Source: Trypanosoma brucei
Taxonomy: Eukaryota
DNA: 64,000 nucleotides
NCBI GenBank assembly: GCA_000002445.1
Contig: CM000208.1
Coordinates: forward strand, 3,488,001 to 3,552,000
Reading direction: 5' to 3'
Numbering within the stretch: position 1 is the first letter of the stretch; each line of letters starts with the position of its first letter. A program made the position numbers and the translations under genes. This document shows, piece by piece, positions 1-60,234 of the stretch. Under the pieces are notes generated by a model. It was not told the origin of the DNA and did not search any database. It saw only the letters and a program-made list of their open reading frames with translations.

Positions 1-490
1 TTTGTTCTTGTTGTTGTTATTGCTGTTGTCGCTTGTTTTGTTTCTTTTTAATTATTATTATTATTATTTTTTTTTCTTTTTACGTCCTCGTTTTCATTCA
101 TTTTATTAACTTTCTTTGTTTTTATTTTTATTTTTTTCTTTTTAAAATACCGTTTCATTTTAGGAACTTCTCCTCTCTTATTTTATACCATATCATCGTT
201 ATATCACCACCACCATTGCCATCGTATTATTATTATTATTATCATCATCATCATCATCAATATTGTTACCCCCTCCTGTTTGTTCGAGTACAAAAAGCAG
301 AGAGATACAAACCAAACAACAACAACAAGGAAAAATAATAATAATAATAATAAAAAAACAAAAGATGGAAAAAAGGGGGAAAAACAAAAAAACAGAAGAA
401 GAAAAAAACGAACACGTATTTAAAAACTTACAAGTAAAAGAGAAAAAGAGTAAAGAGAAAACGAAAAATAAGAAGCGGGAGAAATGAGAT

Positions 491-557
491 TTATTTGATT
501 CCTCATGTGGACTCCCTTCCCTGGTAGATGCAGGAATCCACATGAGGAATCAAATAA
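491..557. repeat. perfect 21 bp inverted repeat (ttatttgattcctcatgtgga and tccacatgaggaatcaaataa) with a 25 bp spacer, forming a potential hairpin
   Basis: Left arm 491-511 and right arm 537-557 are exact reverse complements. It sits in otherwise homopolymer-rich sequence. Confidence 0.85.
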
Positions 558-1232
558 AACATATAAAAATCAAAACAATACAAAAAAAACAAAAAAAAGG
601 AGGAGGTCGCAGAGGCGAAGCGACGTGCTGAAGAGTGTACTGAAAACAAATGAAAGGAACAAAAAAAAAAGGCAAAAAAAAAGAGAGAGGGGTGTTGAGA
701 CCATTGAATGTTTTTGATTGCCAGCAAAGCGATAAAAACAAAAATAAAAGTAAAAAAAAACTATTCTACCGAAGGAGGGGGGAAGAAGGCTTTTTTTAAA
801 AGGACAAACAAGGGGAATAGGGAAGAAATGAACAAAAAGCAAAAAAAAAAAACACCGCTATCGGAAGTGAGTCATAACACTACGCACGCTATATATATAT
901 ATATATATATGCGCCTCTTTTTATACGGGTGTGCGCGTGCGCTTTCCTTTTTTTTTCTTTCTTTCTCCTCTTCATTCCTAAATATTTATTAGTTCGTGTG
1001 GCATCGAGTGAAATCCGTCGTTGCGTGCGGGGTCGCTAAAAAAAAAAAAACAAAAACAGAAAAGGGTAAAGGGTAAAAACTGTCAACCTCCATTATTCTT
1101 TTTCTTTTCCCTAATTATTTTACCTTCAATTTTATTTTGGCTCCTCTTCTTTTTTTTTAATTTCATTATTTCCTTTTACACCAAACACATTTACACTCCT
1201 TTTTCTTTTTATAAATATACTGCCGTTCTCAC

Positions 1233-1276
<44 letters not shown>

Positions 1277-4200
1277 AATATATATAAATAAATATTTCTT
1301 TCTCTCACTGTACCTCTACCCTTTTAAACATTTCCCAACAACCACTGGGCTCAATAGAAAAAAAAAAAGTGACAACAACGGTATTATCACCGTGAAAAAG
1401 AGAAAGAAAAAGATATGGTAAAAAAAAACATAAATACAAATATAAATAGAAAGAAGGTGGGGAATAATTTAAAAAAAAACTGAAAGAAAAAAAGAAAAAA
1501 ACAAGGGGAAAGAAGTCAAATCCAAAAGACGTTAACGGTGAAATAACACAAATTGGAAGAAAAGATAAAAATGAAGATAAATGGGACTTTTATAATTTAA
1601 TAAAAGAAAAAAAACAACAAAGGAGACATTTTATTTTGCTTCACCGGCTTTCTTTTCTTTTTCCTGCTTTCATGGGAGAAGGAAGGACGAAGGAAAGAGA
1701 AACTTTACAAAAAAAAAAAAGAAACGAAAACGAAAAATTAAAAAAAACAAAAAAAAACAAAAAGCAAAAGGGAATGGAAAAAGTGACACCAGGCGACAAA
1801 GTGGAAAATGAGAAGAAGATAAAAGACAAAAAAACAGAAGGGAGAAGAGGAGGGGAACAAAAAGCAAAAACGTAATATCGCTCGAATAAAAATAAAAATA
1901 GAAACATAATTTTTTTTAAAAAAAAGAAGAGAGTCAACAAAGAGAAAAGTAGAAAAACAAAAAGTTAACAAAAACAAAAAAAATCATAGCGTGGACCCCA
2001 AGGGAAACTATTCTGTACTGTGCTTTTATTCATTTGGTTCACTTTCCTCCCTTGTCAAAGCGTCACCATAACGGTGACAACAAACGGTAGAACGCGATAA
2101 TAATAATAATAATAATAACAGTAATAATAATAATAATTGAACTCATATTTTAGTGCACGCGTGCGTGTGAGTGCAGGTTTAGGTTTGTGTACGCGTGAAC
2201 ACTTATTAATATTATATTTTAAAGGGTTGTTATTATTATCGTTGGTGTTAATATCGTTAGCATTATCATCATTATTATTAGGATCGAAGGAGCAAAACAA
2301 AAATATTTCGAAACATCAACAACAACAAAAAAAAAAAGGGAACTCTGGATAGGACCACGGGAGTTTAAACGGGGAGGATGGAAAAAAAACAAAAATAAAG
2401 AAGAAAAAGAGAGAAAACGGTGGATCTAGTGGAAATGGATGCCAAATAAACAAACAAATATATATATATATTGGTAATGGTATTGATATTGATATTGATA
2501 TATTGATATATTTAATAAAATGGAAAAAGCAAATAACAAGAAAGAGCAAAAGTGAAGACTATCAGACAACAACGACAACAAATGAAAGAATGAAATAAAA
2601 TCAAAAACTATAAAATTTTTAAAAAATTAAAAAAAGGAACTACAGAGACTTATGTGACGAATGAAGGAGCGAAGTGGGCGAACAGGAGCAGCATTAGCTG
2701 GCATACACACATACACATATGTTAATATGTAAATATGTAAATATATAAATTAAATACTAACCTAATATATAAACATATATGTACTTACCGGCACGTAAGC
2801 GTAGACATAGTTCCCTCACGCCCACAGCCCCTACTTCAAACATAAACATATATCCGTAGCACATATAATATTATATTTATATATACAAACATACATATAT
2901 ACGAAATAAGGTCATCCATCACCACTTCCATCAATATCTTTTTTTCTTTTCTTTTCTTATTTCATTGTGCTTTTGAGTTTCTCTCCCCCTCGCTTTTTTT
3001 TTCTTTTTTAACCTTTTGATTTGTTCGTTTGTTTCTCATTCTTTTTTTTTTCCTCCTACTCCCCCCCCCCTCTCCCTTTTTCCCGTAGTAAAGATTATTA
3101 TTATTATTATTTCTTTTTTTTTCCTCTCCCTCTCTCTCTCTCTTCACAGAAAATACAGTAAGGCACACATCTCCCCACTCACAGCACTAAACACAAAAGA
3201 GAGATTTTTCCTTTTTTTTTTGTTTTTTTGTAAAAGGAAAAAAAATGTACATACCAAAAACTAAAACAAAAAGAACAATAATAAAGAAAAAGTGAACGAA
3301 AACGAAAACAATGAGCGACAAGCGTAAACTTAATAAATAAAAAAAATGAAAAAAAATGAAAAATGAAAAAACAGACAAAAACCTCTTCGTGTTATTCCCC
3401 GTCCTCAGACCTCATTCTCATCATCTCACCACACAAATTTTCGCCACTTAAACGCCAGCTGTACTTTCGCCCCCTCCCCCCCCCCCAAAGAAAAAAATAT
3501 AAATATAAATATAAATAAAAATATTAATATTAATATTAACTTCGCGGTGTCACAAACTTCCCTTCTTCCTTTTCTCTCCTTTTCGTATCGAATACCTTCG
3601 CACAAACACACACATATAAATACATATAAAAAAAACGAAAAAAAAAAAATATATATATATATGTATATTTCGTACACGGTGGCATCCCTACTACAAATAT
3701 TTGAGAAGAACAAAACAAGAAAAAAACCTTTGTGTATTCCTCTTTTTTCCTTCTTGGTTATTTTAATTTTTTTAAAAAAAAATTATTTATTTATCGATCT
3801 CTGCATTGTCTTCACCGAATCGCGCACGCTTCATTCTTTTCCTTTGAAATCATTTTAAAAAAAAAACTCGAAATTGTTTCGTATGCGCTTGCGGGCTCTC
3901 ACGCCCCTCCCCCCAAACAGAGAAACCAACTAAAGTTTAAAACAAATGACAATAGTTTCTGTGCATATTTTCCCTCTCCTTAACAAGTACAAGAAAAAAC
4001 AAAAAAAAAAAAAGAAAAGCACACATTCACACACTTTGGTCGCCGCAAATGTGATTTCCATCCCCTTCGTTCTCCTTCCTTTCCCCCTTCTCTCCTTTTC
4101 TATCTTGGAAAAAAAAAATAATAATAAAACAAAATAAAGTAAAATAAAGTAAACAGTTTAATTATCTTCCCCCTTTTCACCCCACACACCCACACCGCAC

Positions 4201-5510
4201 GCACGCACGAACGTAAATTTTTATGCGTTGAGACTCTTCCTTTTCTTTCTTTATTTCTTTACTAATTTATTCATCTCTTGAGTGTTTTGTCATAGTTTTA
4301 TCATTATTTTTTTTTTTTTGCGTCTCCTTCCTTGATGCCGCTCAGCCGCTACACATGCCTTTTCTCGCCTTCCCTTCGTTTCTCTTCGGTGTTTTCTTTT
4401 TGCTTTCCTCCTTCTTCTTTTTCCCCCCTTTTTTCTCTCTTTTCTTTTTCTTGTTTTAGTTTTAATTTTAGTTTTAGTTCTATTTTTATTATTGTTGTTG
4501 CTTTCCCCTTGTTTTGCTCCTCCATTTCCTTCATTCCTTCCCTTGTTTTAATGTTGCGGTTTTTTGTTCTGTTCTCTCCTTCAATGCTTCTTCCTTCTCC
4601 GAAATCGTGTTCGGTACGGGTTCAGATGAGAAGTCACACACACACACAAAAAAAAAAAAAAGAGATTCGGCCTCCTCCCGCTCCCCCTTTAGGTTCCAAA
4701 AAAAAAAAAAAAGAGGCGTAACAGCACTCACAGCACTGTTTCTCCATGTTTCTTTTCCTTCTTCTTCTTTCTTCCTCTTCTTTTGTTCGTTTAACATCAA
4801 TGATATGTTTCGGTGAAAAGATAAAACGAACTGTAGAAGAAAATGGGAGAAGGAGGAAGACCGATGCAGTGGCACACCATCTGCCAAAAGCGCATCTTTC
4901 TTCTGCTCTTCTTTTCTTTTTATTTCTATTCCTTCTCCTTCCTTTCCCATTTTAGTCACTTCCCCTTCACCTTCCCATAACGCCACACGCCACATGCCGT
5001 CCAAAGACAGTTTGGTGACGGTAGAAAAGGTTTTTTTTTCCCCATCCCACCACTTTAAATACCCCTCAAACATAAATAAATAAATTTATATTTATATATA
5101 TATATATATACTTTTTTTTTCGTTTCTCTGTGCGCGAGCGGCTCCACGGCTGACGGTCAAGAATTTCTGAAACTCTGCTCCCTTCCCCTCCCTTCCCTTC
5201 CTCCTTCAGTAACAACACAAAAAGACGCTCCCTCGTCCTCCTCTAAGCGGAAGAGGAGTTCTGGGGTGAAACGAACTTCGAAACAAGAAAAAAAAAAAGG
5301 TCTCGCAACACTCCCCACCTCCTAACCAATAAACACACACTTACAATCATTCCGCTACCAACCAACTCACTATCCTATACCTACGTGTTGAACTGCACGG
5401 AGCACAATTTATCTTTCCAGTCACGCAAAGACAAAAAGGAAGCGTCAAACCTCAGCGTCACTTTCTTCCACAAAGTGTAGTTCTGCAGCCGTTAACACTT
5501 TCACACACAC

Positions 5511-5830
5511 TTACATGGTGGGGCCTCCTCCTCCTCCTCCAAACATCCCGCGCATATTTCCTCCCGATGCTCCAAATCCCCCGCTGCCGAAACCGCCACC
5601 ACCGCCACCACCACCGCCGCCGCGACCACCGCCCATTCCAAAACCACCGCTGTTGCCGCCACGCCCGAAAACGTTGCTCATTCCAAAACCACCGCTGTTG
5701 CCACCCCGACCGCCGCGATAACCACCGCCACCACCGCCGCCACCGCGACCACCGCCCATTCCAAAACCACCGCTGTTGCCACCACGCCCGAAACCGCGAT
5801 AACCGCCGCCACCACCTCCGCGGTTATTGT
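5511..5830 (-). repeat. in-frame tandem DNA repeats encoding the Gly/Arg-rich tail of the helicase
   Basis: The block ccattccaaaaccaccgctgttgccaccacgcccgaaa... recurs at about 5630 and about 5750. At protein level the repeat is GGNSGGFGMGGGRGGGGGGGG. Confidence 0.8.
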
Positions 5831-7367
5831 TGTTGTTATTATTGTTGGGGCGCTTGGCCAGTGCACGAACTTCAGGAGAAATGACCTGATTGGTCTCATT
5901 GAGAAGTGGAATGAGATCATCCACAATGTTGCGGTTCTTCTCGTTAAAAAATGAAATGGCGACGCCCACTTTGCCAGCACGGCCTGTGCGGCCGATGCGA
6001 TGCACGTAATCGTCAATATTGCTCGGCATGTCATATTGGATCACAACCCCGACATTGGGGATGTCGAGTCCGCGAGAAGCTACGTCTGTTGCGACAAGAA
6101 CTTGACAAGCGCCTGACTTAAACAGCCTGAGAGCCTCTTCGCGCTCACGCTGCACACGATCGCCGTGGATAGAAACGCACGCCAACTCGCTATTGCGCAG
6201 GAAACGCTCCAAATAATCGGCATCACGCTTCTTTTCGACAAAAACGAGAACAAGCTTGCCTTCATTTTCACGAAGTAACGTGAGTAGCGCCTGACGCTTG
6301 TCCGGGTCCTCAATCCAGCGAACGTCCTGAGTGATATTCTCCGTTGTGGAGCCCACGCGTCCAACCTGAAGGAACGAGTGGCGGCACATAAACTCCCTGG
6401 CGAGCCGCTGAATCTCAACGGGAAAAGTGGCAGAATAGAGCAGAGTTTGGCGCTGACCTGCCCTTGGCATATCACTGTCTGGACCTTGAACAATCATCCG
6501 AATTTGCGGTTCAAATCCCATATCCAGCATTCGATCAGCTTCATCCAATATCAGGAAGCGGATTTCAGAGAAGCGGACGTATCCACGAGAGAACATATCC
6601 ATAAGTCGTCCAGGGGTCGCAACAAGCAATTTACACCCGCGGGAGAGCTCATGTACCTGGTGGCGTGGATCAGCACCGCCATAGACGACTACACAGCGGA
6701 CAGGCGTATGGTAGGTGAACTTGCGGGCTTCTCCATAGATCTGAAGGGAAAGCTCCCTCGTTGGTGCAAGGATAAGGGCTTGGGGGCTGGAGTGGCTGCC
6801 CGGGCTGTACGGAGGGCGGTTCGAAATATTCAACAGTATCTCGTTGATAGCAGGAATAAGGTACGAAGCTGTTTTCCCCGAACCAGTTTGTGCACACGCC
6901 ATAAGATCCCGATGATTGAGCGCTGTTGGAATACCCAAGCTCTGCACAGGCGTTGGCTTGGTGTACCCACAGCGTTTCACATTTTCCAGCAGCACCGGAA
7001 CCATGTTCATTTCACTGAACGATAACACTGGCGCAATGTCGTTTGGCGTGATAGTCATATTCACCTCTCCGTGTTGGTCAAAGTTGATGCCCGGAGTGTG
7101 ATCCTTAAATATGTCCTCATCGGCTGGCTCCTCACGGTGGTAGCCATGGCCGGAGGTTTCCCCTTGGTACGGCACGTTGCGACGGATAAATTCGCCACGA
7201 CCACGGGAGGGGCCATCAAAACCTTCGCGCGGCCTTTGCTGATAACCACCATAGTTGTTGTACCCAACCTGGTGGCCGGCTTCGCCAAATGCTGGGGCGC
7301 GTGCCCACGGGTTGGCGTTGGGGTTGAACTGCTGATGGCCGCCCTGGCCGAAATTCATGCCGTGCAT
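5511..7367 (-). CDS. ATP-dependent DEAD-box RNA helicase of the DDX3/Ded1 family (HEL67-like) with a C-terminal Gly/Arg-rich RGG/GYRGG repeat tail
   Basis: Translation contains AQTGSGKT (motif I), PTRELSLQI, DEAD, SAT and HRIGRTGR motifs. The C-terminal roughly 100 aa are GGRGG/GYRGG repeats. The ORF track starts at a non-ATG codon. The first in-frame ATG (MHGMNFGQGG...) is at 7367, read as cat at 7365-7367. Confidence 0.85.
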   Translation of the reverse strand: MHGMNFGQGGHQQFNPNANPWARAPAFGEAGHQVGYNNYGGYQQRPREGFDGPSRGRGEFIRRNVPYQGETSGHGYHREEPADEDIFKDHTPGINFDQHGEVNMTITPNDIAPVLSFSEMNMVPVLLENVKRCGYTKPTPVQSLGIPTALNHRDLMACAQTGSGKTASYLIPAINEILLNISNRPPYSPGSHSSPQALILAPTRELSLQIYGEARKFTYHTPVRCVVVYGGADPRHQVHELSRGCKLLVATPGRLMDMFSRGYVRFSEIRFLILDEADRMLDMGFEPQIRMIVQGPDSDMPRAGQRQTLLYSATFPVEIQRLAREFMCRHSFLQVGRVGSTTENITQDVRWIEDPDKRQALLTLLRENEGKLVLVFVEKKRDADYLERFLRNSELACVSIHGDRVQREREEALRLFKSGACQVLVATDVASRGLDIPNVGVVIQYDMPSNIDDYVHRIGRTGRAGKVGVAISFFNEKNRNIVDDLIPLLNETNQVISPEVRALAKRPNNNNNNNNRGGGGGGYRGFGRGGNSGGFGMGGGRGGGGGGGGYRGGRGGNSGGFGMSNVFGRGGNSGGFGMGGGRGGGGGGGGGGFGSGGFGASGGNMRGMFGGGGGGPTM

Positions 7368-8811
7368 TTTCAAATATCTTTTTTTTTTTGTGAGGGGCAA
7401 GATGGGTGCACAAGGTGGTGAAAGACGTGTCAAAGATTTAAAGCAAACAAGTAACGCTCGTGTAAAGAAGGACAGAGGACAAACAGTTAGCATAAACACG
7501 AAAACGGAGCAAAAAAGCAGCGGACCAAAGCATGGATACGCATGTGAGCAGTACGCAAAACAAAACAAAAAGGAATAAAAAATAGATCACGTTAAAAAAG
7601 CATTGAGGTGATCACACGAATGGCTTGGGCTCACCTCAAACAATACTCACATCACTCACGAACACATAATTCGATGTTGGTGTGCCTCATCCAACGTTCC
7701 CTTGAGTGTTTTTGCACACAATATTCAGTGGAAGGGAAAAGTAACAAGATGTAGCAGCAAAGGGGGAAAACAATGGAATACAACAAAACAAAGTAAGCAA
7801 TATAACAAGCTTCAACGGCCCAACATTACACAAAACATGTTTTGCAACCACGTCACTGCACAAAAGCCTCAATCTTTTTTTCCCCACCACCACCAGCATA
7901 AATAAGGGGTCTCATATAATATGCCTGAGATAACCTCTTTTCCTCACAGCAACAGCCCAGTAATTGCATCACCCCACCCCCACCCGTTAAAAATAAAAAA
8001 ATAAAAAGGACAAGGGCAACACCATCGCGTTTGTTTTTGGAACAAATTATGCACGTCCGCGCGCGGATGTACGCACGGAAACTAACAATGAAACTAAACC
8101 TTATGTCTCTCAGCCTCCCGTGAGAATATACGCTGCGTACACTTACACAGAAATTCGGTGAGGCCACGGCAGTGCAAGTAGTCCGCTTTGTAATGGGGCA
8201 CAACATCAGTGACAACTCTTTGGCACGAATTGCAGTGTTGCCTGAGGAAAGAAATCGAGAAAAAAAAGTGTTTACACTTTGATCCTTCCGTCAATATCGT
8301 AAGGTTGCAGCATAAACCCTCCATGCTGTTCATATCTCAGTGCAAGCGCAGATGCAACAGCCGCCGTTCACTATTCCACGGATGGCATAATCATCGGCGG
8401 CATTAAGTTCCTGTCTGTCCTTACCTACAAATAATGATCTCAACAATAAACAAATAGCAAATACACGAAGGAAAAACAAAACGCAGGAGAAGGACACATG
8501 TGAAATGTTACAAGTGAGGCCGACGAAACCTCCGAAACCACAGGTTACACCACTTCTGCGCGGCGAATCCAAACATGCAGAACAACCTACACATTACATA
8601 TCCCTCATTCTTTTCTAGTTCCCACAAGAATCCTTCCCACAACGCACGTAAACGAACTCCACCACAGGTGGTAAACACGTGGCAGTATAACGGACGCTGA
8701 GGAAGTAAAAAAAAAAAAATGTACATATATTGGTCTGTATAGATATGTTTGCGTACGCATAAATTAATACAAGGAAGCGTCTTACACCGGGGTCGATTCA
8801 CTGCCTCCGCC

Positions 8812-15448: not shown

Positions 15449-15685
15449 CAAGTCCTTCTACGCAGTAATATGGAAGAAGATCTTCAAAAAAAAAATTATG
15501 AAGGGAAAGAGTCACTACAGTAGTCACAAAACGGGTAAACGAAACGAACGAAACAGACATGGAAGCACAGACAAGATGCTTTCCAATCGAAGACCTCCTT
15601 AGCAGAGGGGAGCACGTTGTCAAAAAAAAAGAAAATAACAAAAACAGTTGCCGTCCATCGGGCTTTTGCAGTGAGCACCAATGCT

Positions 15686-16486
15686 TTAAGCAGCCACCAT
15701 CTTCCTTCCCATAGAGAGGAACTCGGAGTGCTCGTCGGTGGGGTCGCGCGACACCTCCGTCTCCGCCCAGAGGTCGGGGGTAAGGAAGCCGTATGTCTTG
15801 CGCAGTGCATAGAATGTGGCCATGATGAAATTACCACGCGTACGCGTCTTACCACATGAGCTAGTATATACGTCCTCAACGCCGGCAAACTCAAGAATCT
15901 TCTTCGGCACAGGCGCAGCAACGATACCAGCACCACGTGGAGCAGGGATCAAGCGAACGGCAACGGAGCCGCACTTCCCGGTTACCTTGATAGGGATTGT
16001 ATGCGGTTCACCGATCTTGTTACCCCAGTAGCCACGGCGCACAGGCACAATACTCAGCTTCGCAGCGATCATTGACGCACGGATGGCCAGGGACACCTCC
16101 TTGCCGACGCGGGCGCCGACACCAATGTGGCCGTTACCGTCACCAACAACATTGAAGGCCTTGAAGCGTGTGCGCTGTCCGGCAGACGTTGCCTTCTGCA
16201 CGGGGAAAACAAGCATCATCTCATCACGGAGGTCGCCTTCGCGGATCAGTTGGTCCACGATCTGATGCTCTTTGATGGGCATCGAGAAGAGGAAGATTTC
16301 CTCCAGCGAGGTGATCTTTTGATCCTTCACAAGGCGGCCAAGTTTTGTGCATGGCACCCATTCCTTCTCATCACCACCACCGCCACGACCGCCACGACCA
16401 CCGCGACCGCCGCGACCGCCACGTCCGCCACGGCCACGACCGAAGCCGCGCTGCTCGCCACCTGTACCGCGTGGTGCGTCAGCCAT
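15686..16486 (-). CDS. RPS2: 40S ribosomal protein S2 (uS5), copy 1, with an N-terminal RGG box
   Basis: 266 aa. GRGGRGG N-terminal repeats, then [14 protein letters not shown]...[29 protein letters not shown]...[16 protein letters not shown], which is diagnostic of S2/uS5. ATG at 16484-16486. Confidence 0.92.
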
Positions 16487-16968
16487 TCTCGGTTCAACTA
16501 TGACAGCTTATCGTTTCAAATAACGGAGGAAAAAGCAATAAAAAGAGCAAAGACAAATTTTTTAAAAAAAAAACGAAAGAAGGTGCTGCAGTGATCAAGG
16601 GAAAGGGAACCTCAAAAAGGGAATGAAGTACGCCGACGCCCACAGACAAACATACGTAGTCAAAAATTAATCAGAACGCCTTCTAATCGCAGAGATCGCT
16701 CGGTGAAAGCCACCCGAGTAGCTAGCAGCATGCTAGAAGATATTGTACATCTGTCTCCCCGCGAAAGGGAAAAAAAAACATACAAATAAACATATATACA
16801 CGCTATAATACAGTTCCTTCGACCTCGTCTATTCCCCTGAACTCTATTACCACTACAGTTCCACTCTCTCAATTTTTCCAACACTTAATTTGTGATAATG
16901 AAAAAGTTGGGGAACCCTAACTTCAGGAATATATATGTATGAGTATTTTCACCGGCGTGCCCTCACTC

Positions 16969-20570: not shown

Positions 20571-20726
20571 TTACCATGAATTAACGACCAACTTAAATAT
20601 TGCCTCCCCTTCGGGATTCTTGTCAGGATGTAACTCGAGCGCCTTCAGTTTGTAAGCCTCTCGTATTCCGTCCTTAGACGCAGTCCTTGGAACCCCCAGG
20701 ATCGCATAATAGTCCGCCTGCTGCAT
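20571..20726 (-). pseudogene. truncated J-domain gene fragment (51 codons) left at the boundary of the 3.1 kb segmental duplication
   Basis: Encodes [51 protein letters not shown]. The first 48 aa are identical to the N-terminus of the DnaJ protein at 35440-36771. Identity ends at the duplication boundary (about 20578) and a stop follows immediately. Confidence 0.75.
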
Positions 20727-21275
20727 ACCGTACTTTTTCCCTTCCCTTTCTCAGCAGTAATAAGGGAGAAGTGCAGTGGTAAAAGAAGTAGAAATAAAAT
20801 AAGAGACAGCGACTTTAAGAAGCAGCAACAGACTCATAGATCCAACAAGACAATCAATAGCGAGCTCGGCAAGCACGTAAGCACCGCCCCCATTTACACA
20901 CAAGAAAAAGGAAACATATACTCCGTTGCTTACACGGTCAAGGGGGAAGGATCATAGGGAAACCAGGCAAGCAAAGCCACAATACGTTTCGCCCCACTAT
21001 CGGCAGGGTAAACCACCACATATTAAAGACGAACAGGAAGACATGGAGACAACACGCCACGCACAGAAGCCACACCCAACGTATATAAGTGCGCGAGTCC
21101 CATCTTCTCACACTAGCCATCTATTACATTCAATACTGCATAGGACAAGGGCGTACAGAGAAAATTCAAGCAACCATTCTGAACCGGTTATCCAACAAAT
21201 AAAAATATGCTGCATTCCCTTAACCATCCACACCACAGCATCCTAAAAGGAATGACGGTAACGCACTACGTATGT

Positions 21276-22433
21276 CTATTCACCGTTCCGCCGTCTCTCC
21301 TCCTCTATCGCATCTTCCCATTCAAGATCCTCCATTATGCTCTCCGACTGCCGCAGTGCAGCTGGAAGGCGCGAAAGGACGAAGCCTACTGCGCAAAGTA
21401 ACACAATGGTCTCACCCCACAGTCCAATATATTCCTGCATGAAGTCCAGCCACGAAATTATCACACGGTATTTAAACGTTCCAAGCGTCATCTCCTGTCC
21501 CCATCCACCACTGCGAGCACTGGTATACCGCATATGCTCTGGAGGCTTTATCCCATAGAGAAGATAGTAATTACGTGCCTCAGGGTTCACAAGAATGTCG
21601 TATGCATCCTTCAGCTCCTCAAGAACCATCGACCGGTCTTCCTCATTCTTCTCCGTCTCTTCCACTAATTTCTTTTTTGTTTCGTATGCTCTCTTCAGTT
21701 CAGTGGGGTCGACTGAGCGTGCGTCCTTCGTATCCTTCGTGTCCAGCAAAACACTGAAAAGTTCACGGTCTACCTGAGAGGCAAGGCGATTGTACGCAAG
21801 CTCCACCTGTTGATTATTGGCTTCGCACGCACGACCACAGTGAACCAGCTGCCCTCGCGCATCCTGATGTTCTTTATACGCCTTACGGATTTCCTGCCGG
21901 ATGCGGTAGTTCTCCCGCCGTCGTTCCTTGTCAAGGTCCTCTCCACCTGCCTCATCAGCAGCAGCTCCGGTAGATTTCGGACGGATTCTCCCCTTCACAC
22001 CCAATATTTCGTAATAGCTCTCCGCTTCACTTGGAGTGACGGCACCATCATGAGTCGGATTGACCTCACCGAACCCTTTGCCACTCTCAATCTGAGGTGG
22101 CTCCAGGTTAAACTCCACGTCATACTTCGCTAACGCAAGCAACGAAATGGCAATCACTACCGCTACGGAGAAAAAAATGCGAAACATAGAGCCAGAATTT
22201 TCATGCTCGCCTACGACAGCATCCCACTCGGCTTGAGTGATTATACCACGGTTGGGGTCCCGTCGAGAGTAGCGGTTGGTATTAGCAAACCGTGAATTGG
22301 GCCGCTGCACACCATACATGGCGTTGTGCCGTGCAAACACATCCTCCCGAGCAGCACGAGCCGCGCTCTCCTCCAGCTTGTTACGCCGCTCCTGAGCCTG
22401 CTGCTGCCGTATTTGCGCTGCTCGAGGTATCAT
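21276..22433 (-). CDS. hypothetical membrane protein with a split or atypical J-domain-like sequence (copy 1 of 2)
   Basis: 385 aa from the first ATG at 22433. The track start is TTG. It has an N-terminal TM helix (MFRIFFSVAVVIAISLLAL), then YYEILGV ... KRAYETKKKLV ... AYDILVNPEARNYY reminiscent of J-domain helices II and IV, and a C-terminal TM segment. It is 99.7% identical to 37321-38478. Confidence 0.5.
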   Translation of the reverse strand: MIPRAAQIRQQQAQERRNKLEESAARAAREDVFARHNAMYGVQRPNSRFANTNRYSRRDPNRGIITQAEWDAVVGEHENSGSMFRIFFSVAVVIAISLLALAKYDVEFNLEPPQIESGKGFGEVNPTHDGAVTPSEAESYYEILGVKGRIRPKSTGAAADEAGGEDLDKERRRENYRIRQEIRKAYKEHQDARGQLVHCGRACEANNQQVELAYNRLASQVDRELFSVLLDTKDTKDARSVDPTELKRAYETKKKLVEETEKNEEDRSMVLEELKDAYDILVNPEARNYYLLYGIKPPEHMRYTSARSGGWGQEMTLGTFKYRVIISWLDFMQEYIGLWGETIVLLCAVGFVLSRLPAALRQSESIMEDLEWEDAIEEERRRNGE

Positions 22434-22943
22434 ACTTAGCAACTTAGAGCTACACTCCCCATTAGTAACAAATTAAAAACAGGATTCAAGGAAGAAGAGG
22501 GGGAAAAAAAAAAGAAACGGTGATACGACGGGGAAAATAATCGAAGGAAAGCAGTTTGGTGCGGAAATAGGATTGCGCAAACAATCGCAATGTAGTCGCC
22601 CACATACCACACAGTCAGTTACGTCCCTGTTATTACGTAAAATGATTAACGTCGATCATATAAATGATTTCATTATTCTTTTATTTTCCCCCACTCATAC
22701 AGAAAACTTCCATTTACTTCCGTTGCATATTCATCTTTCTTCTCTTGCCTTATAATAGTTTTTCTCGCTGTTATTCGCTGGTCCCTTCTTAATGTTCGTT
22801 TCCCCTCCCCACTCCAACCCGGGCGTAGGAAACGTGAAACACAAACATATAATCTCAGATCACACAGTCAGACAAAGAGCTCCCCACGCAGCCTCTCCCA
22901 CCAAACGTGGCTTTCCTACATCCTTTTGTCCACATTCCTATTC

Positions 22944-23630
22944 CTATTGCGGGGGGGATTTGTAGTAACCTGTAACCACAGCGTGGTCACGCTCGAACGG
23001 TTCCAGCGAGGCCTGTTCCTTCGGTCTCAGCCCTGAGTCCTTCAGCTTCTGCACCTCCGATGCAAAAACAGTAGCAGAGTCCGCTGTCGAATCAATGCAA
23101 TTGGCCTTTATCGAAATAACAAAACCACCGTTCTGTTTCAAAAAGTGTTGTGCATTCAGAGCTAATATTCGCGCCTGGTCGGGTTGAGCAACATCCATAA
23201 AGATGCAGTCTACCAAACGCGGTATCAGCATCCGATATTTCTGCGGGTAGCGGGCATCCTCAAGGATCGGGACAATATTACTCCGACGTTTCGACATCTC
23301 CTCCAGGTCACGCCCGCTACGGTGTGAGAACTCCACAGCGTACACAACACCCTCCGGACCCACCAAATCAGACACATGACTAACAGTTGTCCCACTGGCA
23401 GCACCCAGGTATAACACTGTTGAGCCCGGTTCCATGTATATCTGAGCAACACCAGCGTAAATCGCCGCCGCAAGTTTCGACCGGTATGGATTCCACACGC
23501 GGAACTCGCAGGACTCGGTCTCTCCGGCAATTGTACCGCTTACGCGCTTCTCACCGTATATGGAGACACCAGGTACGAGTGACTTTGTGGCAAGAGTGTC
23601 TTTACCCGCAAGGAGGTAGCAGCCACGCAT
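22944..23630 (-). CDS. fibrillarin paralogue lacking the N-terminal GAR domain, a truncated copy and possible pseudogene
   Basis: The fibrillarin methyltransferase core is 100% identical in protein to 38988-39902, over 239 aa. The internal Met codon of the full copy is GTG here (23661-23663) and an in-frame TAA lies 11 codons upstream. The first ATG is at 23630 ([11 protein letters not shown]...). Confidence 0.5.
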
Positions 23631-24060
23631 ACGAGCATGGGGTTGAAATATGTTGCCCTTCACCCCACCGCCGGCTTTGCCTCCGCCTCGTCCGCCAAAT
23701 TATTATACTACCAGTTAATGAAAACATTAACAATTTCGGTGCTACAACATTGTTCTTACGATATCTTATTATTTTCTGATGGGCGATTGTACTGTACAGG
23801 AGTCGTGGGGGGTATATATGAGAAAAAAGAGAGAGGAAAAAGGATAGGGTGTCGACCGCAACAAAAAAAAAAAGCAAAAGCCGTCCAAAAATTATGAGCG
23901 TGTACAAAAATGATCCAAATCCTTTGGCAACCGAAGTATGTAAAAGAAATAGCTGAGGCGATAGGTAAACCCCCGAGCCATACCGATGTATTGTCTGCAA
24001 CACATTCGTAATGTTCGGTGACGATATGGACCCTTTCCCGTTACTCAGCATACTTCTACG

Positions 24061-32265: not shown

Positions 32266-32527
32266 TAACAATCAACCGACAAAATAAAAATTACTACAGA
32301 CAATCCTTTTCTAGCAGAAAAATAACAAAAACCCTTTAGAGGCACCCCGAAAGGGGAAGAACATGAGGAAAAAGAACGAAGCATTCATAATACAACCACA
32401 AGCACTAAAAAGATAGGAGGAAAAAGAACAAGGTAAACGTACAAAGAGGCAACACACTCAAAACATTAAATTAAAAATACCAAACCGAAAAATAAAGCAG
32501 AAACAATCCTGTACAGCCCGGATCTCG

Positions 32528-33328
32528 TTAAGCAGCCACCATCTTCCTTCCCATAGAGAGGAACTCGGAGTGCTCGTCGGTGGGGTCGCGCGACACCTCC
32601 GTCTCCGCCCAGAGGTCGGGGGTAAGGAAGCCGTATGTCTTGCGCAGTGCATAGAATGTGGCCATGATGAAATTACCACGCGTACGCGTCTTACCACATG
32701 AGCTAGTATATACGTCCTCAACGCCGGCAAACTCAAGAATCTTCTTCGGCACAGGCGCAGCAACGATACCAGCACCACGTGGAGCAGGGATCAAGCGAAC
32801 GGCAACGGAGCCGCACTTCCCGGTTACCTTGATAGGGATTGTATGCGGTTCACCGATCTTGTTACCCCAGTAGCCACGGCGCACAGGCACAATACTCAGC
32901 TTCGCAGCGATCATTGACGCACGGATGGCCAGGGACACCTCCTTGCCGACGCGGGCGCCGACACCAATGTGGCCGTTACCGTCACCAACAACATTGAAGG
33001 CCTTGAAGCGTGTGCGCTGTCCGGCAGACGTTGCCTTCTGCACGGGGAAAACAAGCATCATCTCATCACGGAGGTCGCCTTCGCGGATCAGTTGGTCCAC
33101 GATCTGATGCTCTTTGATGGGCATCGAGAAGAGGAAGATTTCCTCCAGCGAGGTGATCTTTTGATCCTTCACAAGGCGGCCAAGTTTTGTGCATGGCACC
33201 CATTCCTTCTCATCACCACCACCGCCACGACCGCCACGACCACCGCGACCGCCGCGACCGCCACGTCCGCCACGGCCACGACCGAAGCCGCGCTGCTCGC
33301 CACCTGTACCGCGTGGTGCGTCAGCCAT
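32528..33328 (-). CDS. RPS2: 40S ribosomal protein S2 (uS5), copy 2
   Basis: The 266 aa product is identical to copy 1. DNA identity begins at the stop codon and ends 4 nt upstream of the ATG. The track's MRM start at 33334 is GTG. The true ATG is at 33326-33328. Confidence 0.92.
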
Positions 33329-33675
33329 TCTCACTGTTCTTGGACGTCTGCTTTGGGCGGGTCGACGGAAGTCGGCAGTGTTGAGTAGAAGTAGAAGAAA
33401 AAGAGGGAAATCGACAGGTAGGGAATCATATATATATATATATATTTATATGCAAATGTGTTAAAAAACTCAGAAATTCATGGTGATCAAATAGAAACAC
33501 CGCCGAAGCAGTGTCATTTAACGACAAAAAGTTGTTTGTCTGCGAGAAAAGTAATATCTGATGCCCTGACACGGTAAAGGATTTAACCCCTACATCGCTG
33601 CATCAGATGGGTATATCAGGGCGGTAGACAAAAGAGGAATTATTAGCAGGGGACAGTGGTTTAGATGACGAGTTC

Positions 33676-35439: not shown

Positions 35440-36771
35440 TTATAGTTTCCACTCATCCAAGTTAATTGGTTGACCTGATCGCTTCGCCTCCCGCAATGCA
35501 TCAAGCTTCGCCTGCATTTCGGCCTCAATGCGGTCGGTTTCACGTCTCATTGCCTCCACGTCGTCTTGATGACGCTGGCGTTCCAAGACAATTTGTTCCA
35601 ACAAGGCCTTTCGTTTCCCATCAAGCTCTCGTGTTGCCTTCAGGCGTGCTTCCTCCTGCTCAGCGGTCAGTTGGCGCAATGTCTCTTCCTGGTGCTGCTC
35701 CTCCTGACGTTGGAGCTCTTCTTGCCTCAACCGCGCTTCCTCTTCCTGTTTCCGCTTCGCCTCTCGAGCTTTCTCCGATGCTTCGTGTTGAGCTTGTTGA
35801 GCAAGGGCTTCTATTATCTTCAGCTCCGCTTTTTGCAATTCCGATGCTATATCTTGTTCGCGCTGCCTCTGGCGTTCACGGCGTGAGCGTTCCTGTTCAG
35901 TTGTGTCTTGCTGAGCCTGTTCCTTCTCAGTAGCCAAGCGTCGCCGCTCCTCCTCTAGTTCTCTCTTTTTAGTAGCAAGCTCCTTGAGATGGGTATCGAG
36001 ATCCACCTGCTGTTTCTTCTGAAACTCAGCATACTCAGCCATCTTCTGTTTCTCTTGTTCGGCCTTGTGTTGCCTTGTAGCCGCCTCCCTCTCACGGCGA
36101 CGGTTCTCTTCTTCCCACGCCATCCTTGCCCTCTCGCGCTCCAACTCCTCTTCCCGTTCGCGCTCTCTCTTCTCCTGGAGATTCCTCCATTCCTCCGCTC
36201 GCTTCTTTTCCTCGGTCTCCAACTGTTTTGCATAGTCTAGTTTAGCTTTGCAAACCTCTTCGGCCTGTCTAAGTTCTTCTTGTTTTCTTTTGAACCATTC
36301 TGAGAAGCTTGTTTCCGAGTTGCCGGGTCTACGAAAGCCTTCACAGTTATTTTTCGAATTCGGGGCACTGCCCCCGTACGTCCCCTTTGTATACTGCATA
36401 AAGATATCTTCAAACAATTTCTCTTCTGACATCGGGTTTGCTCTAGAAGTACGCGTACCATAAGAATTGGGAACAGGGCCCGCCGCGTTCGCTGCCCTTT
36501 CAGTGGCATTTGGTCTCGGTACATTGTGGGCTCGCGCCGTAGGACCATCCCGCCGAACTTCTCTCAGGCCTATCTCTTGATCATACTTTCGACGCTTAGT
36601 GGGCGAACGCAATATCTGGTATGCATTAACGACCAACTTAAATATTGCCTCCCCTTCGGGATTCTTGTCAGGATGTAACTCGAGCGCCTTCAGTTTGTAA
36701 GCCTCTCGTATTCCGTCCTTAGACGCAGTCCTTGGAACCCCCAGGATCGCATAATAGTCCGCCTGCTGCAT
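35440..36771 (-). CDS. DnaJ (J-domain) protein with a long charged coiled-coil (E/R/K/Q-rich) C-terminal region
   Basis: 443 aa. ATG at 36769-36771. The N-terminal canonical J domain is [60 protein letters not shown], with the HPD motif. The remainder is highly charged ER/EK repeats, such as EEERRRLATEKEQAQQ. Confidence 0.8.
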   Translation of the reverse strand: MQQADYYAILGVPRTASKDGIREAYKLKALELHPDKNPEGEAIFKLVVNAYQILRSPTKRRKYDQEIGLREVRRDGPTARAHNVPRPNATERAANAAGPVPNSYGTRTSRANPMSEEKLFEDIFMQYTKGTYGGSAPNSKNNCEGFRRPGNSETSFSEWFKRKQEELRQAEEVCKAKLDYAKQLETEEKKRAEEWRNLQEKREREREEELERERARMAWEEENRRREREAATRQHKAEQEKQKMAEYAEFQKKQQVDLDTHLKELATKKRELEEERRRLATEKEQAQQDTTEQERSRRERQRQREQDIASELQKAELKIIEALAQQAQHEASEKAREAKRKQEEEARLRQEELQRQEEQHQEETLRQLTAEQEEARLKATRELDGKRKALLEQIVLERQRHQDDVEAMRRETDRIEAEMQAKLDALREAKRSGQPINLDEWKL

Positions 36772-39738
36772 ACCGTACTTTTTCCCTTCCCTTTCTCAGC
36801 AGTAATAAGGGAGAAGTGCAGTGGTAAAAGAAGTAGAAATAAAATAAGAGACAGCGACTTTAAGAAGCAGCAACAGACTCATAGATCCAACAAGACAATC
36901 AATAGCGAGCTCGGCAAGCACGTAAGCACCGCCCCCATTTACACACAAGAAAAAGGAAACATATACTCCGTTGCTTACACGGTCAAGGGGGAAGGATCAT
37001 AGGGAAACCAGGCAAGCAAAGCCACAATACGTTTCGCCCCACTATCGGCAGGGTAAACCACCACATATTAAAGACGAACAGGAAGACATGGAGACAACAC
37101 GCCACGCACAGAAGCCACACCCAACGTATATAAGTGCGCGAGTCCCATCTTCTCACACTAGCCATCTATTACATTCAATACTGCATAGGACAAGGGCGTA
37201 CAGAGAAAATTCAAGCAACCATTCTGAACCGGTTATCCAACAAATAAAAATATGCTGCATTCCCTTAACCATCCACACCACAGCATCCTAAAAGGAATGA
37301 CGGTAACGCACTACGTATGTCTATTCACCGTTCCGCCGTCTCTCCTCCTCTATCGCATCTTCCCATTCAAGATCCTCCATTATGCTCTCCGACTGCCGCA
37401 GTGCAGCTGGAAGGCGCGAAAGGACGAAGCCTACTGCGCAAAGTAACACAATGGTCTCACCCCACAGTCCAATATATTCCTGCATGAAGTCCAGCCACGA
37501 AATTATCACACGGTATTTAAACGTTCCAAGCGTCATCTCCTGTCCCCATCCACCACTGCGAGCACTGGTATACCGCATATGCTCTGGAGGCTTTATCCCA
37601 TAGAGAAGATAGTAATTACGTGCCTCAGGGTTCACAAGAATGTCGTATGCATCCTTCAGCTCCTCAAGAACCATCGACCGGTCTTCCTCATTCTTCTCCG
37701 TCTCTTCCACTAATTTCTTTTTTGTTTCGTATGCTCTCTTCAGTTCAGTGGGGTCGACTGAGCGTGCGTCCTTCGTATCCTTCGTGTCCAGCAAAACACT
37801 GAAAAGTTCACGGTCTACCTGAGAGGCAAGGCGATTGTACGCAAGCTCCACCTGTTGATTCTTGGCTTCGCACGCACGACCACAGTGAACCAGCTGCCCT
37901 CGCGCATCCTGATGTTCTTTATACGCCTTACGGATTTCCTGCCGGATGCGGTAGTTCTCCCGCCGTCGTTCCTTGTCAAGGTCCTCTCCACCTGCCTCAT
38001 CAGCAGCAGCTCCGGTAGATTTCGGACGGATTCTCCCCTTCACACCCAATATTTCGTAATAGCTCTCCGCTTCACTTGGAGTGACGGCACCATCATGAGT
38101 CGGATTGACCTCACCGAACCCTTTGCCACTCTCAATCTGAGGTGGCTCCAGGTTAAACTCCACGTCATACTTCGCTAACGCAAGCAACGAAATGGCAATC
38201 ACTACCGCTACGGAGAAAAAAATGCGAAACATAGAGCCAGAATTTTCATGCTCGCCTACGACAGCATCCCACTCGGCTTGAGTGATTATACCACGGTTGG
38301 GGTCCCGTCGAGAGTAGCGGTTGGTATTAGCAAACCGTGAATTGGGCCGCTGCACACCATACATGGCGTTGTGCCGTGCAAACACATCCTCCCGAGCAGC
38401 ACGAGCCGCGCTCTCCTCCAGCTTGTTACGCCGCTCCTGAGCCTGCTGCTGCCGTATTTGCGCTGCTCGAGGTATCATACTTAGCAACTTAGAGCTACAC
38501 TCCCCATTAGTAACAAATTAAAAACAGGATTCAAGGAAGAAGAGGGGAAAAAAAAAAGAAACGGTGATACGACGGGGAAAATAATCGAAGGAAAGCAGTT
38601 TGGTGCGGAAATAGGATTGCGCAAACAATCGCAATGTAGTCGCCCACATACCACACAGTCAGTTACGTCCCTGTTATTACGTAAAATGATTAACGTCGAT
38701 CATATAAATGATTTCATTATTCTTTTATTTTCCCCCACTCATACAGAAAACTTCCATTTACTTCCGTTGCATATTCATCTTTCTTCTCTTGCCTTATAAT
38801 AGTTTTTCTCGCTGTTATTCGCTGGTCCCTTCTTAATGTTCGTTTCCCCTCCCCACTCCAACCCGGGCATAGGAAACGTGAAACACAAACATATAATCTC
38901 AGATCACACAGTCAGACAAAGAGCTCCCCGCGCAGCCTCTCCCACCAAACGTGGCTTTCCTACATCCTTTTGTCCACATTCCTATTCCTATTGCGGGGGG
39001 GATTTGTAGTAACCTGTAACCACAGCGTGGTCACGCTCGAACGGTTCCAGCGAGGCCTGTTCCTTCGGTCTCAGCCCTGAGTCCTTCAGCTTCTGCACCT
39101 CCGATGCAAAAACAGTAGCAGAGTCCGCTGTCGAATCAATGCAATTGGCCTTTATCGAAATAACAAAACCACCGTTCTGTTTCAAAAAGTGTTGTGCATT
39201 CAGAGCTAATATTCGCGCCTGGTCGGGTTGAGCAACATCCATAAAGATGCAGTCTACCAAACGCGGTATCAGCATCCGATATTTCTGCGGGTAGCGGGCA
39301 TCCTCAAGGATCGGGACAATATTACTCCGACGTTTCGACATCTCCTCCAGGTCACGCCCGCTACGGTGTGAGAACTCCACAGCGTACACAACACCCTCCG
39401 GACCCACCAAATCAGACACATGACTAACAGTTGTCCCACTGGCAGCACCCAGGTATAACACTGTTGAGCCCGGTTCCATGTATATCTGAGCAACACCAGC
39501 GTAAATCGCCGCCGCAAGTTTCGACCGGTATGGATTCCACACGCGGAACTCGCAGGACTCGGTCTCTCCGGCAATTGTACCGCTTACGCGCTTCTCACCG
39601 TATATGGAGACACCAGGTACGAGTGACTTTGTGGCAAGAGTGTCTTTACCCGCAAGGAGGTAGCAGCCACGCATACGAGCATGGGGTTGGAATATGTTGC
39701 CCTTCATCCCACCGCCGGCTTTGCCTCCGCCTCGTCCA
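36623..39738. repeat. segmental duplication copy A2, the likely source copy, whose flanking genes are intact
   Basis: Same block as 20578-23694. Here the left end continues into a full DnaJ gene and the right end into a full GAR-domain fibrillarin. Confidence 0.9.
37321..38478 (-). CDS. hypothetical membrane protein with a split J-domain-like sequence (copy 2 of 2)
   Basis: Identical to 21276-22433 except for a few substitutions (N to K, I to R). It lies inside the 3.1 kb duplicated block. Confidence 0.5.
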   Translation of the reverse strand: MIPRAAQIRQQQAQERRNKLEESAARAAREDVFARHNAMYGVQRPNSRFANTNRYSRRDPNRGIITQAEWDAVVGEHENSGSMFRIFFSVAVVIAISLLALAKYDVEFNLEPPQIESGKGFGEVNPTHDGAVTPSEAESYYEILGVKGRIRPKSTGAAADEAGGEDLDKERRRENYRIRQEIRKAYKEHQDARGQLVHCGRACEAKNQQVELAYNRLASQVDRELFSVLLDTKDTKDARSVDPTELKRAYETKKKLVEETEKNEEDRSMVLEELKDAYDILVNPEARNYYLLYGIKPPEHMRYTSARSGGWGQEMTLGTFKYRVIISWLDFMQEYIGLWGETIVLLCAVGFVLSRLPAALRQSESIMEDLEWEDAIEEERRRNGE

Positions 39739-39902
39739 CCTCCGCGGCCCCCACCTCGGCCTCCTCCGCGACCGCCACGGCCGGAGCCACGACCCCCGCC
39801 GCGTCCACCACCGCCGCCGCCGCCGAAAGCTCCCCGTCCTCTACCGCCACGGCCAAAGCCGCCACCACCAGCACCGCGGCCGCCCCCTCTACCACCGCGC
39901 AT
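38988..39902 (-). CDS. NOP1: fibrillarin (rRNA 2'-O-methyltransferase NOP1) with an N-terminal GAR domain
   Basis: 304 aa. ATG at 39900-39902. The N-terminal roughly 65 aa are RGG/GGRG repeats. The core [40 protein letters not shown]...[37 protein letters not shown]...[11 protein letters not shown]...[13 protein letters not shown]...[13 protein letters not shown] is canonical fibrillarin. Confidence 0.92.
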
Positions 39903-52239: not shown

Positions 52240-52894
52240 CTTTTAGCTTAACACTATAATTAAGAAAGACCCCTTCACTTTTCTAATTAGTGCTGCGTAT
52301 TTTAAAAGCGAAAAAATTAAAAATTAAAGAGGTTAAAGATGTGGCAGGGACGGTAACTGACGACGAGACAAAAAAAAGAAAAAAAAAGACTCGCACAGCT
52401 ACTGCACCCACGAAACCTTTAAAAAACATTCGTAAACAGAGCGTTAAACGCCACACGCACTAACGTAGGGCAGCATACATCAATTGCTAATTATCATTTA
52501 AGTGAACGACAAAAAACAATGAATCGCTAAAACATTATCCCCCATAAATCGGGAGTAACAAATAAAAACCAGCAACGGCACATTCTATTCCTAACATTCA
52601 ACAATAGTGTCCATGCATACACTTCAAACTGCAAGACTACTACTTACCTACGCTAAAGAATTAAAACAAACGTCACCGTGCTAACAGAAATTAATATGCA
52701 TCAAAGCCACTTCCACAGTTTGCGCTCGTTGCCGCTCATGATAATCGTGACCTTCTTGGCCTTTGCCCTATTTTTTTTCTCTTAAAACAAACATATATCT
52801 CATCAAAGGCAGGTTCCCCCGCGCGCACTGCGTCCGTGATCCCGCACCCTACTGAAAACAGAAGATGACGGTACAACGTACCTCAATGAAATCA

Positions 52895-53818
52895 CTAATT
52901 CGATCTGCGCCACTCCACATAAATGGGTTTCAGCGCATCCACGCCGGAAAGTACACCAGCGCCAGCGATACCGCGTAGGATGTTTGCACCAGCGCCTCGC
53001 ATCAGGGACGCAGCTCCCTCCTGTTTAATCACCTGCAACATACAATCCATCGAGTTCTTGTACTTCACAGCAGCACCTGATGTCATCATCATGCGCCGGC
53101 GAACGGTGTCCAACGGGTAAGAAAGAAGCCCCGCCACAATAGTCACAGCCCATCCAAGGAAGAAGTTTACGATGAATGTGTCCACAGGAAGCATTGGCTG
53201 AAGGGTGTCGTAAAGACCAAAGTAGAAACCACGGTACACAACAATACCAATACAGGATACCACAAAGCCACGATACAACCCAGCGATGCCATCACTCTTC
53301 CATGTCTTGACATAGCAGTCCACAATACCGTTAAATTGGCGCTCCCCACCACCCTTCACAGACTTCGTGTCGTTAGCGAGACGGGTACGGACGTAGTCCA
53401 AGGAATACACAAAACAAAGAGATGCAGCACCAGCGAGACCACCAGATGCCATGTTACCCATAAACCACTTGCCATAGCCATCCTTCTCCTTTTTGTAATT
53501 GAACATCCTCTTAAATTTATCCTTAAAGGCGAAATTCAGCGCCTGAGTTGGAAAGTAACGCAGAACATTTGACAGGTTACCTCGCCAAAGCGGATACACG
53601 CCCTCCGTGCTGATGGTGCGCCGAAAGCAGTCAACGACACCGTTGTATGGCTTGTCCAGTCGGCCTTGCTTCATCATCTCTCCCTGGTTCTGTACGAGCA
53701 GTTTTACTCTTTCGATTGGAGCAGCCGCCGTCTTGGATAAACCGGCAGCGACACCACCAATCATAAACTCCTCAAGGAACCCAAGTTTGGGGGCCGGTTC
53801 CCGCTTTTTATCCGTCAT
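52895..53818 (-). CDS. mitochondrial ADP/ATP carrier (AAC, SLC25 family), tandem copy 1
   Basis: 307 aa with three mitochondrial-carrier repeats. The RRRMMM AAC signature (DTVRRRMMM), with [26 protein letters not shown] and GNMASGG. ATG at 53816-53818. Confidence 0.92.
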
Positions 53819-54274
53819 CCTGATAATGCAAAAAGGTGTGCGATACTTCCTGAGAGAAAAATATATATAGCAGTAAGGAATTATAATTCTTTTTTTTTTA
53901 CAAACTTTAAGAAATGCAAGGGATGGTTGGGAACATTGCCTAATCGAAAGTGCGTGCTAAATATAACGATCGAAAATTGCTCCGTCATAAAAAAGTAATT
54001 AAAACAAAAATAACAAATTTACCGAATGCCCCACGATGGTAACAGCCACACTGTACACCACGCGCTGTGCCCCGTTATTTCCCAGTGAGTTTCTACAGAT
54101 TGCGCTCGTTGCCGCTCATGATAATCGTGACCTTCTTGGCCTTTGCCCTATTTTTTTTCTCTTAAAACAAACATATATCTCATCAAAGGCAGGTTCCCCC
54201 GCGCGCACTGCGTCCGTGATCCCGCACCCTACTGAAAACAGAAGATGACGGTACAACGTACCTCAATGAAATCA

Positions 54275-55198: not shown

Positions 55199-55654
55199 CC
55201 TGATAATGCAAAAAGGTGTGCGATACTTCCTGAGAGAAAAATATATATAGCAGTAAGGAATTATAATTCTTTTTTTTTTACAAACTTTAAGAAATGCAAG
55301 GGATGGTTGGGAACATTGCCTAATCGAAAGTGCGTGCTAAATATAACGATCGAAAATTGCTCCGTCATAAAAAAGTAATTAAAACAAAAATAACAAATTT
55401 ACCGAATGCCCCACGATGGTAACAGCCACACTGTACACCACGCGCTGTGCCCCGTTATTTCCCAGTGAGTTTCTACAGATTGCGCTCGTTGCCGCTCATG
55501 ATAATCGTGACCTTCTTGGCCTTTGCCCTATTTTTTTTCTCTTAAAACAAACATATATCTCATCAAAGGCAGGTTCCCCCGCGCGCACTGCGTCCGTGAT
55601 CCCGCACCCTACTGAAAACAGAAGATGACGGTACAACGTACCTCAATGAAATCA

Positions 55655-60117: not shown

Positions 60118-60234
<117 letters not shown>

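Follow-up and report, generated by a model that had tools for sequence, protein, structure and literature searches.

The question raised by the stretch of Trypanosoma brucei DNA analyzed here (the window, 64,000 nt) is how two copies of a ribosomal protein gene that lie far apart can be identical throughout their coding sequence (CDS) while the DNA on either side of them is unrelated. A pairwise comparison within the window showed that positions 15686-16490 and 32528-33332 match over 805 nt with 0 mismatches and that this match is not extendable by one base at either end. An exact repeat of this length in 64 kb cannot have originated by chance. Both copies (A and B, respectively) are located on the minus strand, and the shared block begins with a GAGA motif placed in the 4 nt upstream of the ATG (16487-16490 in copy A and 33329-33332 in copy B) and closes on the final base of the TAA stop codon. 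The CDS of copy A spans 15686-16486 (stop codon at 15686-15688, ATG at 16484-16486) and that of copy B 32528-33328, each encoding the same protein of 266 aa. The offset between the copies is 16,842 nt, with about nine unrelated genes between them.

Outside the block the resemblance ceases at once. The ungapped identity of the flanks amounts to 7-18 of 50 positions per 50-nt bin, which is the chance level; a self-blastn of the window (word 11, E<1e-5) found no further flank similarity beside the S2 copies, and the only residual similarity detected by blastn (word 11) and by Smith-Waterman alignment against shuffled sequences was pyrimidine-rich low complexity. The 3' intergenic regions are unrelated to each other (15449-15685 in copy A, 237 nt to the next ATG; 32266-32527 in copy B, 262 nt; both minus strand), and so are the 5' intergenic regions (16491-16968 and 33333-33675, minus strand). 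The 5' intergenic lengths are 482 nt for copy A and 347 nt for copy B, with polypyrimidine tracts and AG dinucleotides near the ATG. The 3' intergenic region of copy A must hold both the 3'UTR of this copy and the splice signals of the downstream gene. A preliminary description of this DNA had proposed that the two S2 genes are duplicates without differences, that their identity is confined to the CDS plus 4 nt 5' of the ATG and that they are about 16.8 kb apart. Pairwise alignment confirmed the three statements: the flanks are at chance from the first outside base, and neither mismatches inside the CDS nor similarity extending into the flanks was found.

The encoded protein contains the N-terminal (dsRBD-like) domain of the Ribosomal_S5 family (PF00333, residues 86-150, 74.2 bits against a cut-off of 27.1) and the C-terminal domain of the same family (PF03719, residues 170-242, 83.6 bits against a cut-off of 21.5). 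It aligns over its full length (1-266 on 1-266, E 1.7e-178) with PDB chain 4v8m_AP, deposited as '40S ribosomal protein S2, putative' (266 aa), followed in rank by chains of other kinetoplastid ribosomes named S2 or uS5 by their depositors. The best database relatives are trypanosomatid S2/uS5 proteins as well. Judged from its sequence, the 266-aa product is thus identified as uS5, the eukaryotic 40S ribosomal protein S2, and the synteny described below agrees with this assignment for both copies. The RGG region at the N-terminus of S2 is encoded by a 9-nt tandem repeat of about 6.6 copies (16374-16450 and 33216-33292). The length of this repeat varies between species, yet it is identical in both T. 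brucei copies; the S2 of T. cruzi found here is 257 aa long, and the chain of this species in PDB 5opt has 263 aa.

Copy A is preceded by a gene encoding a leucine-rich-repeat (LRR) protein of 1103 aa and followed by a FAM210-like gene and then by the gene for uL22/L17, while copy B has an SH3-domain gene (391 aa) upstream and a gene for a 342-aa protein downstream. The ORFs of at least 150 aa, which were taken as genes, are all on the minus strand between 4.5 and 56.6 kb, and therefore both S2 copies belong to one polycistronic transcription unit. They presumably correspond to the gene IDs Tb927.10.14600 and Tb927.10.14710, which in the literature found are named only in proteomic tables. At one end of the window, positions 1-4500 are gene-free, AT-rich (GC 0.30) and of low complexity, with short AT-, A- and ATA-type repeats, downstream of a DEAD-box helicase gene at 5511-7493. 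At the other end (56600-64000), the longest stop-free stretch on either strand does not exceed 151 codons over 7.4 kb, and a (TC)18 tract followed by (TG)40 is found at 60118-60233; this part could be either a transcription boundary or a long untranslated region. Neither a tRNA nor an Rfam match was obtained when the window was scanned, the AT-rich stretch included.

The duplication of S2 is old. In T. vivax and T. melophagium the gene is present both at position A (after the LRR gene, upstream of FAM210 and uL22) and at position B (after the SH3 gene), the copies being 13.3 kb and 14.9 kb apart, respectively, and the gene order was confirmed by tblastn in both species. Since both loci are syntenic in these species, the duplication must be older than the split between them. 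Species sampling was limited by the search with the LRR protein, which returned five homologues. T. cruzi has S2 at position B, in a sequence that ends inside the LRR gene, and T. rangeli has it at position A. Outside the genus, S2 is at position A in Phytomonas EM1 (L014 10001-10789) and at position B in Angomonas deanei (L012 10001-10798), with one exact copy returned in each case, so both sites may predate Trypanosoma. These single copies would reflect either a duplication prior to the trypanosomatid radiation followed by differential loss, or second copies with non-identical proteins, which a look-up of exact sequences does not return. In the interval that separates the LRR gene from S2 copy A, T. 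melophagium carries an aldo-keto reductase gene and a glycosyltransferase family 15 gene (L009 13758-16092), and Phytomonas EM1 an aldo-keto reductase gene at the same position (L014 8735-9565); both genes are absent from this place in T. brucei and T. vivax.

A second repeat of the window has a different history. It occupies 20576-23696 and 36621-39740 (3121 nt, 7 mismatches and 1 indel), and its identity, in contrast to that of S2, continues across intergenic DNA. Within it are a 50-codon 5' fragment of a DnaJ gene, a 385-aa gene without a Pfam domain and the methyltransferase core of fibrillarin. The DnaJ fragment in copy 1 is a relic followed by stop codons. The fibrillarin ORF has 228 aa in copy 1 and 304 aa in copy 2, the former lacking the glycine/arginine-rich N-terminus of 76 aa that the latter possesses. 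A single segmental duplication of 16-17 kb that carried S2 and this repeat together (offsets of 16,842 and 16,045 nt) was considered and rejected. T. vivax, T. melophagium and T. cruzi lack the 3.1-kb insertion between the Rtf2 and LRR genes, and hence it is recent in the T. brucei lineage; as the repeat is missing where both S2 loci are present, the two duplications are separate events of very different age. The S2 copies are not members of a tandem array homogenized as whole units either, being 16,842 nt apart with some nine unrelated genes between them and dissimilar flanks. The window does contain such an array at 52711-56644, where three head-to-tail units of 1380 nt, each encoding a mitochondrial carrier protein of 307 aa (Pfam Mito_carr), are 99.8-99.9% identical including their spacers. 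This classic whole-unit homogenized array contrasts with the S2 pair.

Comparison of the copies within and between species reveals that they have been kept alike after the duplication. Copies A and B show 0 differences in T. brucei, 2 differences in 786 nt in T. vivax and 0 differences in sense codons in T. melophagium, and the S2 CDS overall is 16-20% different between Trypanosoma species. At third codon positions the distance is 0-0.008 within species vs. 0.39-0.49 between them, and the paralogues group by species, not by locus. With 39-49% of the third positions differing between species, synonymous sites are evidently free to change. Only repeated exchange between the copies can produce this contrast; selection acting on codon usage or the protein is insufficient.

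The possibility that conversion plays no part, and that the identity results from very strong purifying selection (including that on codon usage) or from a very recent duplication, is compatible with the high expression of S2 and with its GC3 of 0.63, which is above that of most neighboring genes. It conflicts with the third-position divergence just described, with the age of the duplication implied by loci that are syntenic in three species and with three synonymous variants that co-vary in both copies between strains (see below), and the probability left to it is negligible. As for the GC3 value itself, GC-biased conversion was rejected as its cause: the L17 gene, without a second copy in the window, reaches 0.74, and thus the elevation in S2 is attributed to expression-linked codon bias.

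The variants among close relatives point in the same direction. The exact S2 protein is encoded twice, with the same neighbors, in FN554973.1 and CM010681.1 and once in contig CZPT02000935.1, sequences that we take to be from T. brucei gambiense DAL972 and two T. equiperdum assemblies. In FN554973.1 and CM010681.1 both copies have the same identity edges as in the window (-4 and stop codon), and all four copies differ synonymously from the window at nt 201, 546 and 681. Orthologous flanks differ by 0.6-2.3% between these genomes (2.1% for the 3' intergenic region of copy A against its FN554973 ortholog), which marks the three CDS changes common to both copies as ordinary variation between strains, transferred from paralogue to paralogue. 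Their presence in both copies implies that exchange is recent, on the timescale of the T. brucei group. Copy A of CM010681.1 has in addition a private synonymous C>T change at CDS nt 39 (L001 10039), in the RGG-repeat region, which copy B does not carry and which is either a new mutation still unhomogenized or an assembly error.

Short-read polishing tends to homogenize the consensus of identical 0.8-kb repeats, and reads of two slightly different copies could in principle have been merged into one sequence. Such an assembly or polishing artifact is most improbable, as independent assemblies agree with the window and single differences between copies were resolved elsewhere, namely nt 39 in CM010681.1, two sites in T. 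vivax and the stop codon in T. melophagium. Mosaic (partial) conversion tracts were not seen among the copies compared, which show only unshared single variants (nt 39 of copy A in CM010681.1 and the two T. vivax sites), and for this reason we infer conversion from its outcome rather than observe it. The earlier proposal that gene conversion homogenizes the CDS while the flanks diverge is nonetheless well supported by the conserved loci, the grouping by species and the variants that co-vary in both copies.

We therefore favor, with a probability of about 90%, an ancient dispersed duplication within one polycistronic unit whose two CDSs are continually homogenized by interlocus (ectopic, intrachromosomal) gene conversion. 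The flanks, being outside the selection common to both copies, would have drifted to randomness, and once heterologous they would no longer be able to join a homology-dependent exchange. The self-maintaining block of homology would in this way have been trimmed back to the CDS, the part that purifying selection keeps alike.

The position of the edges in the three species can be read along these lines. In the T. brucei group identity ends at -4 on the 5' side and at the last base of the stop codon on the 3' side; in T. vivax it extends from -33 to +7; in T. melophagium it starts at -6 and stops at the second base of the stop codon, which is TAA in one copy and TGA in the other. No residual flank similarity beyond low complexity was detected between the S2 copies of T. 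vivax or of T. melophagium (blastn, word 7). Edges at -4 and the stop codon, at -33 and +7, and inside the stop codon would result from homology having been eroded to the selected part. The scatter between species fits a homology trimmed by selection and is not what a mechanism transferring precisely one CDS would give. Coming from outside, the interchangeable stop codon of T. melophagium is the first site that is neutral, and identity ends exactly there.

The boundary could instead be set by active selection and not by passive erosion, if each copy possessed a specialized set of UTRs (for life stage, stress or mutual compensation) and conversions that spill into the flanks were purged. Identity edges that are only 0-7 nt from the stop codon in three species agree with this reading, as does the behavior of other pairs: Leishmania ribosomal protein (RP) paralogues with divergent UTRs differ in expression and compensate each other (PMC11098316), and the VSP1 pair of T. 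brucei, with near-identical CDSs and divergent 3'UTRs, is reciprocally regulated (PMC2771046). The 5' edge, on the other hand, varies (-4, -6, -33) as drift predicts, and the short 3' intergenic regions (237 and 262 nt) also serve the trans-splicing of the downstream gene, which could by itself disfavor replacement of the flanks. Moreover, copy-specific conservation of the 5' and 3' intergenic regions was not detected between species: low-complexity matches aside, A-A and B-B alignments did not score above A-B alignments or shuffled sequences, a weak test considering that silent sites are near saturation. Active selection of the boundary is consequently possible but doubtful, and erosion of the flanks around CDSs homogenized by conversion remains the preferred explanation.

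An RNA or cDNA template, or a retroposed processed mRNA, might have transferred the sequence in place of DNA-to-DNA conversion. Both S2 genes are presumably very highly transcribed, and the 33 nt shared upstream of the ATG in T. vivax open precisely with an AG, which in copy A is preceded by a stretch rich in pyrimidines and could be a trans-splice acceptor. An RNA template would, however, bring along its own UTRs, and in T. brucei and T. melophagium identity ends at -4 or -6 and at the stop codon rather than where the mRNA does. The window contains 0 matches to the spliced leader with up to 3 mismatches allowed, and no poly(A) tract follows either S2 stop codon. A retroposed or processed copy was rejected on these grounds (no spliced-leader remnant, no A-run, identity without the UTRs), and transfer through a transcript is in general very unlikely.

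DNA-to-DNA conversion in its simple form leaves one aspect of the data without explanation. The first and last 60 nt of the S2 CDS are among its most variable parts between species (22-44% different, including C-terminal replacements and an indel) and show 0 differences within each species, which means that homogenization reaches the very edge of the homology. Conversion is expected to be inefficient in the outermost tens of bases of a homologous segment, and the simple model does not account for tracts that reach the edge. Homogenization up to the last sense codon and to the bases just before the ATG, to within 0-7 nt of heterology, maintained since before the radiation of the genus and across 13-17 kb of unrelated genes, is hard to square with the homology-length requirements of recombination and with the published tendency of segregated duplicates to evade concerted evolution (see below). 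It could denote a specialized route, for which one-ended invasion with resolution through microhomology, repair guided by a transcript or a selection policing the identity of the UTRs would be candidates; we regard this idea as improbable. If it were true, gene pairs that are identical exactly over their CDS would constitute a natural assay for the ends of recombination tracts in trypanosomes.

With regard to function, the unrelated intergenic regions imply that the two S2 mRNAs must differ in both UTRs while the protein is identical. The statement of the preliminary description that the same protein is produced from two copies with unrelated 3' regions is correct in a trivial sense, given identical CDSs followed by unrelated regions of 237 and 262 nt. 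Paralogue-specific post-transcriptional control of the S2 copies is plausible by analogy with the Leishmania pairs. Trypanosomes have no promoters for individual genes, and thus protein levels are set mainly through copy number and UTRs. The most economical function for the pair is to double the gene dosage where transcription is polycistronic and promoter-less, and the unrelated 3' intergenic regions are equally compatible with a plain dosage role and with UTR-specific control. Reads from the CDS are not assignable to one copy or the other, so that only UTR-specific reads or tags can tell the expression of both genes apart. Two identical CDSs with unrelated UTRs in one transcription unit represent a clean natural test of the contribution of the UTRs. 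The pair is in addition a record of ectopic recombination that is still under way in the chromosome core.

Identical coding sequences with divergent UTRs and concerted evolution have already been published for ribosomal protein and tubulin paralogues of trypanosomatids, and the novelty that the preliminary description implied for the pattern was not borne out (PMC11098316; PMC1533823; PMC5896880). In T. brucei, 67 of the 75 cytosolic RPs belong to families of two or three members (PMC5896880). In Leishmania most RP genes are duplicated with predominantly divergent UTRs, and identical CDSs with divergent UTRs are stated to be typical of them (PMC11098316). The value of the present analysis is that the gene-conversion reading was explicitly tested at the S2 locus and held.

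The closest case is the RPS16 pair of L. major (LmjF.26.0880/0890), which also consists of two RP copies whose CDSs are identical and whose UTRs diverge in a polycistronic trypanosomatid genome (PMC11098316). The RPS16 genes are adjacent and in tandem, whereas the S2 copies are separated by 16.8 kb and about nine genes. The two studies are also complementary in scope: for RPS16 expression and compensation were measured and gene conversion was not addressed (PMC11098316), and for S2 the reverse applies. The beta-tubulin loci of Leishmania resemble S2 in being syntenic paralogous loci whose coding sequences group by species and whose flanks are locus-specific; their coding regions were described as 'conserved and concerted' and their non-coding regions as distinctive, and ectopic gene conversion was invoked (PMC1533823). 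Those loci, unlike S2, are on different chromosomes, include arrays and evolve in concert only in some species (PMC1533823), while S2 is concerted in all three Trypanosoma species examined and its identity is complete.

Among T. brucei genes, the VSP1 pair (Tb11.02.4910/4930) resembles S2 in its almost identical CDSs and divergent 3'UTRs; in contrast to S2, it is tandemly linked. Its reciprocal regulation was seen on microarrays (PMC2771046). Outside the trypanosomatids, the RP paralogue pairs of yeast offer a parallel, as most RP genes are duplicated, with highly conserved coding regions and divergent UTRs; they differ in having arisen from whole-genome duplication, in possessing cross-regulating introns and in being transcribed from their own promoters (PMC5755908; PMC9399092). 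The trypanosome copies have one polycistronic transcript in common and can differ only post-transcriptionally.

Gene conversion in the tandem arrays of T. brucei was surveyed by Jackson (PMC1855330), and these arrays share with S2 both the organism and the homogenizing process. They usually homogenize the whole repeat unit including the intergenic spacer (PMC1855330), which is not the case for S2. According to the same survey, duplicates with UTRs of their own that unrelated genes set apart from an array tend to evade concerted evolution and to retain orthology (Jackson, 2007; PMC1855330). The S2 pair departs from this generalization, a modest point: its copies are separated, have unique UTRs and still evolve in concert in three species.
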